The notes below the pieces were generated by a model, which saw only the letters and a program-made list of their open reading frames with translations, ran no database searches and had not been told where the DNA came from. 64,000 nucleotides of DNA from Escherichia coli (GTDB taxonomy: Bacteria > Pseudomonadota > Gammaproteobacteria > Enterobacterales > Enterobacteriaceae): assembly GCF_003790525.1 (NCBI RefSeq), contig NZ_CP033635.1, one strand, 5' to 3'. Shown in pieces: positions 5,748 to 53,330 of the stretch. The position numbers were made by a program, and so were the translations under genes. Numbering within the stretch: the first letter of the stretch is position 1; each line of letters begins with the position of its first letter.

Positions 5748-6019
5748 TATCAATCCTTTTTCAACAAATTATTCGATGCGTTCCCACGGAATAAGATTAT
5801 CCATAAGAACAGCCAGTAAAATTCCGACCAGTAAGCCGTTACTGAGCAGAGGACGAAGCGTTAATGGAAGGTCTTGCAGATACACAGGCGGTAATGCCAT
5901 TAAAAATATGCCGACAAATAACGGCAATGCGAGTCGATAAATATTGCGAGCGGTAAACGTTATTTGCTGGCTAAACACCAGCGCGGAAAAGAGTAAAGGC
6001 AGATGGTAATGACTCCAAC

Positions 6020-6523
6020 TTACTGATAGTGTTTTATGTTCAGATAATGCCCGATGACCTTGTCATGCAGCTCCACCGATTTTGAGAACGACAGTGACTT
6101 CCGTCCCAGCCTTGCCAGATGTTGTCTCAGATTCAGGTTATGCCGCTCAATTCGCTGAGTGTAACGCTTGCTGATTACGTGCAGCTTTCCCTTCAGGCGG
6201 GATTCATACAGCGGCCAGCCATCCGTCATCCATACCACGACCTCAAAGGCCGACAGCAGGCTTAGAAGACGCTCCAGTGTGGCCAGAGTGCGTTCACCGA
6301 ATACGTGCGCAACAACCGTCTTCCGGAGCCTGTCATACGCGTAAAACAGCCAGCGCTGGCGCGATTTAGCCCCGACGTATCCCCACTGTTCGTCCATTTC
6401 CGCGCAGACGATGACGTCACTGCCCGGCTGTATGCGCGAGGTTACCGACTGCGGCCTGAGTTTTTTAAATGGCGGAAAATCGTGTTGAGGCCAACGCCCA
6501 TAATGCGGGCGGTTGCCCGGCAT
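6020..6523 (-). CDS. insB: IS1 InsB (C-terminal part of InsAB' transposase)
   Basis: ORF track, 167 aa, recognised InsB. Confidence 0.95.
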
Positions 6524-6717
6524 CCAACGCCATTCATGGCCATATCAATGATTTTCTGGTGCGTACCGGGTTGAGAAGCGGTGTAAGTGAACTGCAGTTG
6601 CCATGTTTTACGGCAGTGAGAGCAGAGATAGCGCTGATGTCCGGCGGTGCTTTTGCCGTTACGCACCACCCCGTCAGTAGCTGAACAGGAGGGACAGCTG
6701 ATAGAAACAGAAGCCAC
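6442..6717 (-). CDS. insA: IS1 InsA (transposition repressor / N-terminal part of InsAB' transposase)
   Basis: ORF track, 91 aa, [23 protein letters not shown]... recognised; A6C slippery motif lies at plus-strand 6460-6466. Confidence 0.95.
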
Positions 6718-7902
6718 TGGAGCACCTCAAAAACACCATCATACACTAAATCAGTAAGTTGGCAGCATCACCAAGGCAGATAAGAAACCAACATGACCGC
6801 GCTACTCACCGGTAAAGGGATACTGCAAAACAGTCGTGTGAGTGCCGGAACCAGTGCCACCAGCAGGCAAATAACGCTGCCATAAATAAACGATCGTCGC
6901 GTGTAATCGCCAGTCTGGGTTAATAAACCAATGGATGAAACAAACGGTGAAAATGGAATTACCGCCAGCGGCACGGTTATCAGCGTCATAAATCCGGTCG
7001 CCACAAAGCTGCGACGATAACGCGTATTCCCCGCGCCCTGTTGCGGATAAAAAACATCCGTGCCACGAATCGCACCGTAGGTATTGCTGATATTTACCAG
7101 ACCTGTAATCACCGCCGTCAGAATAATCCCCGGCGACAAAGCACCGCCACTGCCGAGCGGGAACCACTGCCAGTGCAACTCACCGGAGAGCGAATGCGAA
7201 GAAGGAAAGCAAAAGTACCACAACAACCAGCCGGTTATCGTACCGACCAGCAGGCCATAACGGGCAAAACGTTGCGGCAGGAAGATAATCATCGCCAGTA
7301 CCAGGCACATCACCGCCACCGAGAGCGCGAACGGCGGTAACTGAATTTTAAAATTCGGGTCGGCTATGCCAAACGGCAGCCCGAGCATACCTTTGAAAAA
7401 GATAGTGGTCAGCTGCGCGCCCAGCATCAACATAAACAAGACCATCACCGACGGCGTAAATAACCGCGCCAGACGATGACCTAATCCGCTAAAACCAATC
7501 AACATCGTCAGCACGCCAGAGAGCGCAATTCCCACCGCCAGGCTGGTAGCGATATCGTTGATCGGTGTCCCGCGCGATGCTTCGCCAAGGGTGATAGTCA
7601 GGATGGTTCCCCACCACAGGCCACCCGGCCCTTCCATAATAGCGCGACGATGACCGCAGAACGCCTGAGCGAAGCAGGCCAGTGCGGTAGCAAGAAAAGC
7701 ATATTGCGTGAGCGTAAGCAGGCTACTTTGCGGCAACTGAAAAGCAGAAAGTAGCGTAGGAGGAACCACAACCGTGTTGCAAAAAATAAAGAAAAACCAC
7801 TGAAATCCTGATAACAGGCTTTCGCGGCCCACTGCAAAATTGAACATAAACACACCTTAACCGGAGAATGCCCGCCACAAGGACGGGCATTGCAGGGCCA
7901 GA

Positions 7903-18309: not shown

Positions 18310-18396
18310 GCCGGATGCGGCGTGAACGCCTTATCCGGCCTACGGTTAAGTGCAGTTTTGTAGGCCTGATAAGACGCGCCAGCGTCGCATCAGGCA
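18310..18396. repeat. REP/BIME: pair of inverted REP palindromes
   Basis: GCCGGATGCGGCGTGAACGCCTTATCCGGCCTAC and TAGGCCTGATAAGACGCGCCAGCGTCGCATCAGGC motifs. Confidence 0.85.
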
Positions 18397-23846: not shown

Positions 23847-23996
23847 GTAGGCCTGATAAGACGCGCCAGCGTCGCATCAGGCATCCGCGCATAGCCGCCG
23901 GATGCGGCGTGAACGCCTTATCCGGCCTACCAAACCGTGCTAATTCAATACATTGCAGGTGCCATGTAGGTCTGATAAGACGCATCAGGCATCGCA
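23847..23996. repeat. REP/BIME cluster (three REP units)
   Basis: Repeated GCCTGATAAGACGCG...CGCATCAGGC and GCCGGATGCGGCGTGAACGCCTTATCCGGCCTAC motifs. Confidence 0.85.
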
Positions 23997-26503: not shown

Positions 26504-26958
26504 TGGAGTTAATGGTCGTTCATCCACATATTTTCTGGCTCAGTCTCGGCGGGTTGCTGCTGGCAGCCGAGATGCTGGGCGGAAATGGTTATTTGTTGTG
26601 GAGCGGCGTGGCAGCGGTGATTACCGGCCTGGTGGTCTGGCTGGTGCCGCTGGGTTGGGAGTGGCAAGGGGTGATGTTTGCCATCCTGACGCTGCTCGCC
26701 GCCTGGCTGTGGTGGAAATGGTTGTCGCGGCGGGTGCGCGAACAAAAGCACAGCGACAGTCATTTAAACCAGCGCGGGCAGCAGCTGATTGGCCGACGTT
26801 TTGTGCTGGAATCTCCGCTGGTCAACGGGCGCGGTCATATGCGCGTCGGCGACAGTTCATGGCCTGTCAGCGCCAGCGAGGATCTCGGTGCAGGTACGCA
26901 TGTTGAAGTCATTGCGATAGAAGGGATAACGCTGATCATCCGTGCGGTCATCGCCTGA
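26500..26958 (+). CDS. ybbJ: NfeD-like membrane protein, partner of QmcA
   Basis: ORF track, 152 aa; 4-nt overlap with qmcA. Confidence 0.85.
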
Positions 26959-27045
26959 TGCGACGCTGACGCGTCTTATCATGCCTACAAAATATGCCCG
27001 AATCGTAGGCCAGATAAGGCGCTTGCGCCGCATCCGGCATATAGC
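26954..27045. repeat. REP/BIME element at the left edge of the accessory insert
   Basis: GCCTGATGCGACGCTGACGCGTCTTATCATGCCTAC ... GTAGGCCAGATAAGGCGC...CGCATCCGGC motifs. Confidence 0.8.
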
Positions 27046-32506: not shown

Positions 32507-35011
32507 ATGTCACAAACTATCGACCTGACCCTGGACGGCCTGTCCTGCGGTCACTGCGTTAAACGCGTGAAAGAAAGTCTCGAACAGCGCCCGGATGTTG
32601 AGCAGGCGGATGTGTCTGTCACTGAAGCGCACGTTACCGGGACTGCCAGTGCAGAACAGCTGATCGAAACCATCAAACAAGCGGGTTATGACGCATCTGT
32701 AAGCCACCCAAAGGCTAAACCGCTGGCGGAGTCATCAATCCCGTCGGAAGCACTGACAGCGGTTTCTGAGGCGCTTCCGGCAGCGACCGCCGATGACGAT
32801 GACAGCCAGCAGTTGCTGCTGAGCGGCATGAGCTGCGCCAGCTGTGTCACCCGCGTACAAAATGCGCTGCAAAGCGTACCGGGCGTCACTCAGGCACGGG
32901 TAAACCTGGCGGAGCGTACTGCGCTGGTGATGGGCAGTGCCTCCCCACAAGATTTAGTGCAGGCGGTGGAAAAAGCGGGCTACGGTGCGGAAGCGATTGA
33001 AGATGACGCGAAACGCCGTGAGCGCCAGCAAGAAACCGCCGTCGCTACGATGAAGCGCTTCCGCTGGCAGGCGATTGTCGCACTGGCGGTGGGTATCCCG
33101 GTGATGGTCTGGGGGATGATCGGCGATAACATGATGGTCACCGCCGACAACCGCAGCCTGTGGTTGGTTATCGGCCTGATAACCCTGGCGGTAATGTTTT
33201 TCGCCGGCGGGCATTTTTACCGCAGCGCATGGAAAAGCCTGCTGAACGGTGCAGCGACGATGGATACGCTGGTGGCGCTGGGTACTGGCGTGGCGTGGCT
33301 CTATTCGATGAGCGTCAACCTGTGGCCGCAGTGGTTCCCGATGGAAGCGCGACATCTTTACTATGAAGCCAGTGCGATGATTATCGGTCTGATCAATCTC
33401 GGCCATATGCTGGAAGCGCGCGCACGTCAGCGTTCTTCTAAGGCGCTGGAGAAATTACTCGATTTAACCCCACCGACGGCGCGCCTGGTCACCGACGAAG
33501 GTGAAAAAAACGTGCCGCTGGCAGATGTTCAGCCAGGTATGTTACTGCGCCTGACGACCGGCGACCGTGTGCCGGTAGATGGTGAGATTACTCAAGGCGA
33601 AGCGTGGCTGGATGAAGCGATGCTGACGGGCGAACCTATCCCGCAGCAAAAAGGCGAAGGCGATAGCGTCCATGCCGGGACAGTGGTACAGGACGGCAGT
33701 GTGCTGTTTCGTGCCAGTGCGGTCGGCAGCCATACTACGCTGTCACGGATCATTCGCATGGTGCGCCAGGCCCAGAGCAGCAAGCCTGAAATCGGCCAAC
33801 TGGCGGATAAAATCTCAGCCGTATTTGTGCCGGTAGTAGTGGTTATTGCGCTTGTCAGTGCGGCAATCTGGTATTTCTTTGGTCCGGCACCGCAGATTGT
33901 CTATACCCTGGTGATTGCCACCACGGTGCTGATTATTGCCTGTCCGTGTGCGCTGGGACTGGCGACGCCGATGTCGATTATTTCGGGCGTCGGGCGGGCG
34001 GCTGAGTTTGGCGTGCTGGTACGGGACGCCGACGCGCTGCAACGCGCCAGTACGCTCGATACCGTAGTGTTCGATAAAACCGGGACGCTGACCGAAGGTA
34101 AACCGCAGGTTGTCGCAGTGAAAACGTTTGCTGATGTTGATGAAGCGCAGGCATTGCGTCTGGCGGCGGCACTGGAGCAAGGTTCCAGCCATCCGCTGGC
34201 ACGAGCGATCCTCGATAAAGCAGGCGATATGCAGCTGCCGCAGGTCAACGGTTTCCGCACATTGCGCGGGCTGGGCGTGAGCGGTGAAGCTGAAGGTCAT
34301 GCGTTATTGCTGGGCAATCAGGCGCTGTTAAATGAGCAACAGGTTGATACCAAAGCTATCGAAGCGGAGATTACTGCTCAGGCATCGCAAGGGGCAACGC
34401 CTGTGCTGCTGGCGGTTGACGGGAAAGCGGTAGCCCTGCTGGCTGTACGCGATCCATTGCGTAGTGATAGCGTGGCGGCGCTGCAACGCCTGCATAAAGC
34501 GGGATATCGTCTGGTGATGTTGACCGGGGATAACCCAACCACCGCCAATGCGATCGCCAAAGAAGCCGGGATTGATGAGGTGATCGCCGGGGTGCTGCCG
34601 GACGGTAAAGCCGAAGCGATTAAACGCCTGCAAAGTGAAGGACGTCAGGTGGCAATGGTGGGCGACGGCATTAACGACGCGCCAGCGCTGGCTCAGGCGG
34701 ATGTCGGTATTGCGATGGGTGGCGGCAGTGATGTTGCCATTGAAACCGCGGCGATTACCCTGATGCGCCATAGCCTGATGGGTGTTGCGGATGCGCTCGC
34801 GATTTCCCGCGCAACGCTGCGCAATATGAAGCAGAACCTGCTCGGTGCGTTTATCTACAACAGCATTGGTATTCCGGTCGCCGCCGGTATTTTGTGGCCG
34901 TTCACCGGTACGCTGCTTAACCCGGTGGTTGCCGGAGCGGCAATGGCGCTCTCGTCGATTACCGTAGTGAGTAACGCCAACCGGTTGCTGCGGTTTAAAC
35001 CGAAGGAATAA
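32507..35011 (+). CDS. copA: Cu(I)-translocating P1B-type ATPase
   Basis: ORF track, 834 aa; two N-terminal GLSCGHC / GMSCASC metal-binding domains, CPC, DKTGT. Confidence 0.95.
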
Positions 35012-35039
35012 GTATGTCATTGCGGATGCGCTGCTTTAG

Positions 35040-35200
35040 GGTGGCGCATCTGGCATCGACGCATGCCTGCCGGATGCGGCATAAACGCCTTATCCGGCCT
35101 ACGATTCAGGCACAGGGTTGTAGGCCTGATAAGACGCGTAAGCGTCGCATCAGGCAATGGTGCTCGGATGCCGGATGCCGGATGCGGCGATGTTTTGGCA
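35040..35200. repeat. REP/BIME cluster filling the copA-ybaP intergenic region
   Basis: Multiple GCCGGATGCGGC...GCCTTATCCGGCCTAC and TAGGCCTGATAAGACGCG...CGCATCAGGC units. Confidence 0.85.
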
Positions 35201-35314
35201 TTACGCGACCTTTTTGCACGTTTTCCCCGGCGTGCCAAATATTTAATCCGTCCCAACTCCATTTGCGCCATCCCTCACCGCGCGCTAGCATGATATTTCA
35301 CAAAGGGAGGTCGT

Positions 35315-36109
35315 ATGGATCTGTTGTACCGGGTAAAAACGCTTTGGGCCGCGCTGCGCGGTAATCATTACACCTGGCCTGCTATCGATATCTCTCTTCC
35401 CGGCAATCGCCATTTTCATCTGATCGGCAGTATTCATATGGGTAGCCACGATATGGCTCCCCTGCCCACCCGTTTGCTCAAAAAGCTCAAAAACGCCGAT
35501 GCGCTGATCGTCGAGGCGGATGTTTCCACCAGCGATACGCCTTTTGCTAATTTGCCTGCCTGCGAGGCGCTGGAAGAGCGCATTAGCGAGGAGCAACTCC
35601 AAAACCTGCAGCACATTAGCCAGGAGATGGGCATTTCTACCTCACTCTTTTCTACCCAACCGCTGTGGCAAATCGCGATGGTTCTTCAGGCGACGCAGGC
35701 ACAAAAACTGGGGCTCCGGGCAGAATATGGTATCGATTACCAGCTATTGCAGGCGGCGAAGCAACAACATAAACCCGTGATTGAACTGGAAGGGGCAGAA
35801 AACCAGATTGCCATGTTGCTCCAGCTCCCTGACAAAGGACTGGCACTGCTGGACGATACGCTGACCCACTGGCACACCAATGCACGGTTGCTGCAACAAA
35901 TGATGAGCTGGTGGCTGAATGCACCGCCGCAAAATAATGAAATAACGCTGCCCAATACGTTCAGTCAGTCGCTGTACGATGTGCTGATGCATCAGCGAAA
36001 TCTCGCCTGGCGGGATAAATTACGCGCCATGCCGCCGGGGCGATATGTGGTCGCGGTCGGTGCACTACACCTGTATGGAGAAGGGAATTTGCCGCAAATG
36101 TTGCGCTAA
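35315..36109 (+). CDS. ybaP: TraB/GumN-family protein
   Basis: ORF track, 264 aa; recognised YbaP. Confidence 0.85.
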   Translation: MDLLYRVKTLWAALRGNHYTWPAIDISLPGNRHFHLIGSIHMGSHDMAPLPTRLLKKLKNADALIVEADVSTSDTPFANLPACEALEERISEEQLQNLQHISQEMGISTSLFSTQPLWQIAMVLQATQAQKLGLRAEYGIDYQLLQAAKQQHKPVIELEGAENQIAMLLQLPDKGLALLDDTLTHWHTNARLLQQMMSWWLNAPPQNNEITLPNTFSQSLYDVLMHQRNLAWRDKLRAMPPGRYVVAVGALHLYGEGNLPQMLR

Positions 36110-36792: not shown

Positions 36793-36828
36793 GCATTGTG
36801 CCGGATGCAAATATCCGGCACTTTCGGA

Positions 36829-41864: not shown

Positions 41865-41949
41865 GTAGGCCTGATAAGACGCGCCAGCGTCGCATCAGGC
41901 ATTGAGAGCAAAATGCCAGATGCGGCGTGAACGCCTTATCTGGCCTACG
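41865..41949. repeat. REP/BIME pair
   Basis: TAGGCCTGATAAGACGCGCCAGCGTCGCATCAGGC and GCCAGATGCGGCGTGAACGCCTTATCTGGCCTAC. Confidence 0.85.
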
Positions 41950-53229: not shown

Positions 53230-53330
53230 CTGCCTGATGCGCTACGCTTATCAGGCCTACACCGCTCCTGCAATATATTGAATTCTTGCGGTTTCGTAGG
53301 CCGGATAAGGCGGTCACGCCGCATCCGGCA
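53230..53330. repeat. REP/BIME pair
   Basis: GCCTGATGCGCTACGCTTATCAGGCCTAC and GTAGGCCGGATAAGGCGGTCACGCCGCATCCGGC. Confidence 0.85.

Follow-up and report, generated by a model that had tools for sequence, protein, structure and literature searches.

The copA-ybaP spacer of Escherichia coli SMS-3-5 as a probable remnant of a decayed higB-1/ybaQ toxin-antitoxin locus

The spacer between copA and ybaP in E. coli SMS-3-5 is, with a probability that we put at about 90%, a degraded chromosomal higB-1/ybaQ (HigB/HigA-type) toxin-antitoxin (TA) locus that reached its present state through stepwise decay. Because 56 nt from the 3' end of ybaQ persist at the locus as a relic, ybaQ was lost in SMS-3-5 and not gained in other lineages. 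The relic also shows the absence of ybaQ to be the result of a deletion and not of repetitive extragenic palindrome (REP) elements "filling" the spacer. The finding is already known in kind, being a lineage-specific version of a published gene-loss polymorphism and not a new kind of element.

The window is the whole 64-kb stretch of DNA that was analyzed. The 1.2 kb around the spacer matches the SMS-3-5 chromosome (NC_010498.1) at 100% identity, on the reverse strand of that record, and SMS-3-5 is an environmental isolate of serotype O19:H34, ST354, and phylogroup F (PMC11537424). A preliminary description of the window had placed the spacer at 35012-35314, and the flanking codons (copA stop at 35009-35011, ybaP ATG at 35315) fix its length at exactly 303 nt. 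RefSeq annotates no feature between the two genes in the SMS-3-5 record. The spacer contains a non-REP hairpin, a shortened BIME-2, short BIME-associated flanks, the ybaQ relic, and a 58-nt ybaP leader, arranged as follows.

32507-35011, plus strand: copA, copper-exporting P-type ATPase, the left flank, with its TAA stop at 35009-35011 (open reading frame [ORF] list and RefSeq annotation of SMS-3-5)
35024-35051, plus strand: non-REP stem-loop, 13 nt past the copA stop (RNA and DNA folds, z of -3.9 for 35020-35056; conservation in alignments)
35069-35102, plus strand: Y-type REP, GCCGGATGCGGCATAAACGCCTTATCCGGCCTAC (Y consensus matched with 2 mismatches, where chance predicts 0 matches; hairpin fold, z of -3.0)
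35103-35119, no strand: 17-nt short tail-to-tail linker from the Y to the Z2 REP, at the S-type linker position of a BIME-2 (sequence and the definition in PMC3333891)
35120-35155, minus strand: Z2-type REP in the opposite orientation to the Y REP (Z2 pattern matched with 0 mismatches; hairpin fold, z of -5.1)
35170-35189, plus strand: truncated third REP, consisting of a 7-nt GCCGGAT duplication and, after it, a Y REP head at 35177-35189 (pattern match and alignment)
35201-35256, minus strand: ybaQ relic, 56 nt from the 3' end of the gene, corresponding to ybaQ nt 271-342, with the complement of the stop codon at 35201-35203 (blastn, tblastn, alignments, and translation)
35253-35260, no strand: deletion junction, between 35256 and 35257, where the relic directly abuts the ybaP leader (alignment and computed deletion size)
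35257-35314, plus strand: 58-nt ybaP leader with the Shine-Dalgarno sequence AGGGAGG at 35304-35310, kept in all structural alleles (alignments)
35315-36109, plus strand: ybaP, TraB/GumN family, the right flank, with its ATG at 35315 (ORF list and RefSeq annotation)

The preliminary description had placed a ybaQ gene between ybaP and copA in K-12, and this was correct. In the K-12 derivative CJ236, the copA-ybaP interval is 794 nt long and encodes, on the strand opposite copA and ybaP, a 113-amino-acid YbaQ (WP_000806442.1) annotated as a "HigA family addiction module antitoxin"; in K-12 strains ybaQ is convergent with copA. K-12 YbaQ scores 105 bits against TIGR02607 (HigA) and 43.6 bits against Pfam HTH_3. 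Alignment of the copA-ybaP region of SMS-3-5 with that of K-12 shows the gene in K-12 and 352 nt missing in SMS-3-5 relative to the LR-58-1/K-12-type allele, made up of nt 1-270 of ybaQ plus about 80 nt on its upstream side.

What is left of the gene was overlooked in the preliminary description. When K-12 ybaQ was compared with the window by blastn, nt 299-342, including the stop codon, aligned with 35243-35201 on the minus strand (39/44 identities, E value of 2e-9), and a second piece, nt 271-285, aligned with 35259-35245. A tblastn search of the 64-kb window with K-12 YbaQ gave a single match of 23 amino acids (residues 89-111, E value of 0.025) and nothing else better than an E value of 0.3. 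The suspicion that ybaQ is absent from this strain is supported, as K-12 has the gene and the window yields only this stub in place of a homolog. Multiple alignment reveals that the relic has decayed: over about 70 nt it has lost 12 nt in one place and a single, frameshifting nucleotide in another, and it carries about 5 substitutions. SMS-3-5 retains only codons ~91 to 113, frameshifted and with the N-terminal HTH_3/TIGR02607 domain gone, so no HigA antitoxin ORF survives.

In intact alleles, the two breakpoints carry the microhomology GTCCCAA / GTC(T/C)CCAA, and such short direct repeats at breakpoints would be expected if illegitimate or slipped-strand recombination had occurred. On its right side, the deletion ends at a point (between …CAA and CTCCATTTGCG) where toxin-bearing and toxin-less alleles also diverge from each other, so the sequence fits a toxin-less, K-12-like parent and a joint deletion of toxin and antitoxin alike. 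The relic has changed more than either the REP block beside it or the flanks, its changes are common to all 44 genomes that contain the junction, and no intact ybaQ allele bearing its substitutions was seen among the alleles compared. This excess divergence may mean that the deletion event was old, error prone, or complex. Strains DDG206 and DDG220, which matched the junction query in two pieces, were considered as carriers of the parental ybaQ allele of the relic and rejected; their alleles are ordinary K-12-like ones that share one SNP and are without the substitutions of the relic.

The preliminary description had also stated that the spacer holds only REP sequences. Genuine REP units are indeed there, but the REP/BIME block (35069-35189) spans 121 nt, or about 40% of the spacer. 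Both complete REPs end in GCCTAC, providing the CTAC/GTAG foot of the REP class consensus, and each folds as a hairpin; the half Y REP at 35177-35189 gave no significant hairpin on folding. The block lies at a noncoding site, downstream of the copA stop codon and upstream of ybaP, and its units are dispersed, with a pattern search of the 64-kb window returning 5 Y and 5 Z2 consensus matches versus 0 in shuffled controls. Further clusters of the Y/Z2 REP/BIME-2 type are found in the window at 18310-18395, 23847-23930, 26953-27038, 41865-41948, and 53296-53329, so the spacer repeats belong to an ordinary genome-wide family.

BIME-2 elements are defined as alternating inverted Y and Z2 REPs with a short linker, often in tandem and with a copy number that varies between strains (PMC3333891). 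The order Y(+), 17 nt, Z2(-), 14 nt, half Y(+) agrees with this definition, as do the match of the units to the Y and Z2 consensus, their inverted orientation, the 17-nt tail-to-tail linker, the position downstream of a gene, and the variable number of REPs at the same site. Alignments show a single Y in 2012C-4606, Y-Z2-Y in LR-58-1, and Y-Z2-Y-Z2-Y in K-12. The SMS-3-5 copy differs in being shortened to Y-Z2 plus half a Y, compared with the full Y-Z2-Y-Z2-Y cluster between copA and ybaQ in K-12, and the missing 3' half of its third REP is present in WL297, LR-58-1, and K-12.

Other candidate assignments for the spacer were rejected. The four mechanical ORFs within it (116, 84, 76, and 61 amino acids), which the preliminary description had dismissed as translations of REP sequence, gave no Pfam family and are unannotated in RefSeq, and they are not regarded as genes. 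In a permissive Rfam scan of the spacer, naRNA4 (RF02564) had a best score of 47.9 bits and a next score of 36.8 bits, short of the gathering score of 59.5, so membership in this family was not accepted. The resemblance to naRNA4, the nucleoid-associated RNA derived from REP325, is one of sequence and structure, since both are built of Y/Z2 REP hairpins, but the subthreshold scores of the spacer reflect common REP content and not membership. A snoRNA match in the same scan was attributed to chance.

The hairpin at 35024-35051 is kept in every allele aligned except the PEC1020 type and is probably a copA 3'-end or terminator hairpin. The only terminator-like match in a scan of 34900-35450 fell within the half REP and did not exceed chance expectation. 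BIME-2 elements generally are bound and cleaved in vivo by DNA gyrase and provide topological insulation (Espeli & Boccard 1997, cited in PMC3333891). By analogy, the hairpin together with the shortened BIME-2 probably stabilizes or terminates the 3' end of copA mRNA and serves ahead of ybaP as a topological buffer that binds gyrase. On the other side of the spacer, the same 58 nt precedes ybaP in all structural alleles, which suggests that the ybaP expression signals lie within this conserved segment. A weak promoter, TTGCGC-16-TAGCAT, is possible within 35257-35314; a promoter scan of 34900-35450 found no promoter-like site at its threshold.

Comparison across 5,426 complete E. coli genomes places SMS-3-5 among several states of this locus. 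At 95% identity or higher, ybaQ is found in 4,834 of the 5,426 genomes (89%), leaving about 11% that do not have it, and the HigB-like toxin is found in 1,266 (23%). B2 strains and some F strains carry the HigB toxin beside ybaQ. The copA-ybaP interval of UTI89 is 869 nt long and contains ybaQ and an upstream RelE/ParE-family gene without REPs; the product of this neighboring toxin gene matches PF05015 (HigB-like_toxin) with 110 bits. No HigB-like toxin gene accompanies the relic in SMS-3-5, where the best matches have E values of 0.089 to 0.34 in the window and 0.084 on the plasmids, with none on the chromosome by blastn, and hence there is no type II HigB/HigA module of the kind present in UTI89 and 2016C-3878.

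Besides the SMS-3-5 type, E. coli has at least two further alleles in which the loss took place independently. The ST70-type allele (NZ_CP102244.1; 1913-2083 of its locus) has a REP-free 171-nt spacer without ybaQ and with deletion endpoints of its own, and it is matched in at most 188 genomes, a count that takes in the ybaQ-positive E2348/69-type allele. In E2348/69 itself (NC_011601.1, 468451-468947), the locus appears to be the REP-free, toxin-less, ybaQ-positive precursor of the ST70 allele. The PEC1020-type allele, present in 347 genomes, has the whole module replaced by an unrelated 428-nt filler. The SMS-3-5 allele, with its relic and BIME-2, is distinct from both the REP-free ST70-type deletion and the 347-genome allele.

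The PEC1020 filler (NZ_CP162603.1, 1913-2340 of its locus) is GC rich and starts inside the copA stop codon, changing TAA to TGA. Its core of about 270 nt is a dispersed repeat found at a median of 3 places per genome with 91 to 95% identity, and in K-12 one of these places is the aqpZ-lysO interval. A 222-bp "Replication Risk Sequence" (RRS) has been reported between aqpZ and lysO (PMC11194060), and the filler may represent an extra RRS-like copy at copA-ybaP. Its score against Rfam TwoAYGGAY was 31.5 bits, below the threshold of 43, and blastn of the filler against the window listed no match.

Flanking sequences show that the SMS-3-5 region is a mosaic. In strains 2016C-3878, MRY15-117, and CE-O153H30, ybaP matches that of SMS-3-5 at all 775 nt compared and the final 600 nt of copA differ from it at just 3 sites, yet these strains carry intact higB-1 and ybaQ without REPs. 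Genomes of the WL297 type have the deletion allele in common with SMS-3-5 and differ from it at 27 of 600 copA sites and 39 of 775 ybaP sites; the flanks of WL297 and 2013C-4282 are 4 to 5% divergent from those of SMS-3-5. Because the flanks of SMS-3-5 are nearly identical to those of relatives with an intact TA pair, its deletion allele sits in a short recombination patch.

34984-35277 at minimum and about 34913-35382 at maximum, no strand: recombination patch with the deletion allele (comparison of flank SNPs)

Inspection of SNPs places the left edge between 34913 and 34984 and the right edge between 35277 and about 35362-35383. Outside these limits, SMS-3-5 is essentially identical to phylogroup F-type strains that keep higB-1 and ybaQ, and on this comparison the deletion allele occupies about 300 to 470 nt of an otherwise F-type region. 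The exchange could have run in either of two directions, with the deletion allele imported into F or the TA module reimported into the relatives. Somewhat tentatively, the ybaQ-deleted allele could have arisen outside the SMS-3-5 lineage and entered, as a ~300- to 470-nt import by homologous recombination, an F chromosome that carried an active higB-1/ybaQ pair; we hold this possible and somewhat short of even odds. Were it true, it would represent a natural one-step removal of a chromosomal "addiction" module by allelic replacement, and it would mean that the same small deletion allele circulates between very divergent backgrounds (WL297-type versus F-type flanks).

The proposed history begins with a toxin-less allele in which a BIME-2 separated copA from the ybaQ 3' end, the state of LR-58-1 and K-12 today. 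A 352-nt deletion between the GTCCCAA / GTCYCCAA repeats would then have removed the ybaQ promoter and codons 1 to 90, leaving the 56-nt 3' relic to decay. The third REP would have lost its 3' half later, in the sub-lineage of SMS-3-5: the four divergent genomes with the junction (e.g., WL297 and 2013C-4282) share both the junction and the relic and have a full third Y REP, so the REP truncation in SMS-3-5 is later than the deletion. Finally, the allele would have come to lie in a phylogroup F chromosome as the homologous-recombination patch of about 300 to 470 nt. Overall, such a decay series would run from a complete TA module through an orphan antitoxin with a downstream BIME-2 to a deleted antitoxin, with recombination shifting alleles between lineages.

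Several other accounts of the missing gene were weighed against this history. The REP/BIME machinery itself, through RAYT/TnpA-REP cleavage or REP-REP recombination, might have caused the loss, in which case REPs would have "replaced" the gene. The BIME-2 at this locus is dynamic, comprising 1 to 5 REPs depending on the strain and including a truncated unit in SMS-3-5. TnpA-REP is able to cleave and recombine BIMEs in vitro (PMC3333891). However, the deletion starts 67 nt from the nearest REP, both of its ends lie in non-REP sequence with CCAA-type microhomology, and neither REP sequence nor a GTAG/CTAC cleavage motif occurs at the junction. The same BIME-2 also coexists with ybaQ in thousands of genomes, and ybaQ has been lost in the REP-free ST70-type allele as well. 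REP-mediated deletion was rejected because both breakpoints are in non-REP sequence, and we consider it very unlikely. Less probable still is that SMS-3-5 retains a ybaQ that moved to another chromosomal or plasmid site or became too diverged to see. Plasmid-borne higBA-like DNA does occur in other E. coli (95 plasmid places, 60 to 80% identity), but the SMS-3-5 genome argues against a relocated copy. A chimeric query of SMS-3-5 ybaP, K-12 ybaQ, and UTI89 higB-1, used in a sensitive blastn search at the DNA level (~65 to 70% identity or better), matched NC_010498.1 at one place only, ybaP, and gave two places in ybaQ-positive strains that share this ybaP allele. At that sensitivity the chromosome contains no other ybaQ- or higB-like DNA, the window was negative, and tblastn of the four SMS-3-5 plasmids (147 kb) with YbaQ gave no match at an E value of ≤1, extending the absence noted in the preliminary description beyond the window. 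The large plasmid pSMS35_130 (NC_010488.1) carries the TA systems vapBC, pemIK, and hok/mok and no HigBA.

It could also be argued that the empty, REP-bearing spacer is ancestral and that K-12 and others gained ybaQ by insertion. The share of complete genomes without ybaQ and the divergence of all structural alleles at the same right-hand boundary, which could resemble an insertion site, are compatible with that order of events. It is refuted by the last ~70 nt of ybaQ, stop codon included, which remain in the right position and orientation and can only be the leftover of a former gene, and we judge a lineage that never had ybaQ to be extremely improbable. An assembly artifact, produced by collapse of a repeat-rich region, has a practically negligible probability. 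REP clusters are difficult for short-read assembly, but the junction falls in unique sequence and not inside a repeat, and a 113-nt junction query found it in one continuous piece in 44 complete genomes, 40 of them independent assemblies with at least 99% identity (including CE10) and 4 with 93 to 94%. The same junction in 44 genomes means that it was inherited and is not an assembly error. Decay of a higB-1/ybaQ locus by deletion is the reading kept here.

The locus has been described before. According to Rousset et al. (bioRxiv 10.1101/2020.05.25.114553), cells need ybaQ for viability only if they are B2 or F strains with higB-1 upstream of it. Most phylogroups, K-12 among them, do not have higB-1, and phylogroup D has lost both genes. 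YbaQ in K-12 is listed by RASTA-Bacteria as a solitary antitoxin (PMC2374986). The SMS-3-5 spacer is the same locus as that of Rousset et al., with a full TA pair in B2/F, an orphan antitoxin in K-12 and most groups, and neither gene in some clades, and our counts of toxin and ybaQ agree with this trend. The difference is that Rousset et al. placed the loss of both genes in D and described F as carrying higB-1, whereas SMS-3-5, CE10, and about 40 others are F-type with a loss allele. What is added to the higB-1/ybaQ story is therefore a phylogroup F subset (SMS-3-5, CE10, and ~40 other complete genomes) that lost both genes via a separate allele. E. coli has therefore lost ybaQ by three or more independent routes, and this supports the idea that without its toxin the orphan antitoxin can be dispensed with. 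In practical terms, a gene that seemed "missing" relative to K-12 is truly absent for a stated reason, REP-derived ORFs are kept from annotation, and the impression of a REP-filled gap is corrected. The importance is mostly housekeeping, with a minor refinement of known biology.

The neighborhood of the locus varies in gene content as well. UTI89 has two extra genes, for a DUF6896 protein and a hypothetical protein, between ybaK and ushA (5783-7083 of its locus). Both are absent from SMS-3-5 (window positions 36793-36828) and from K-12, making this a further small presence/absence polymorphism beside the locus.
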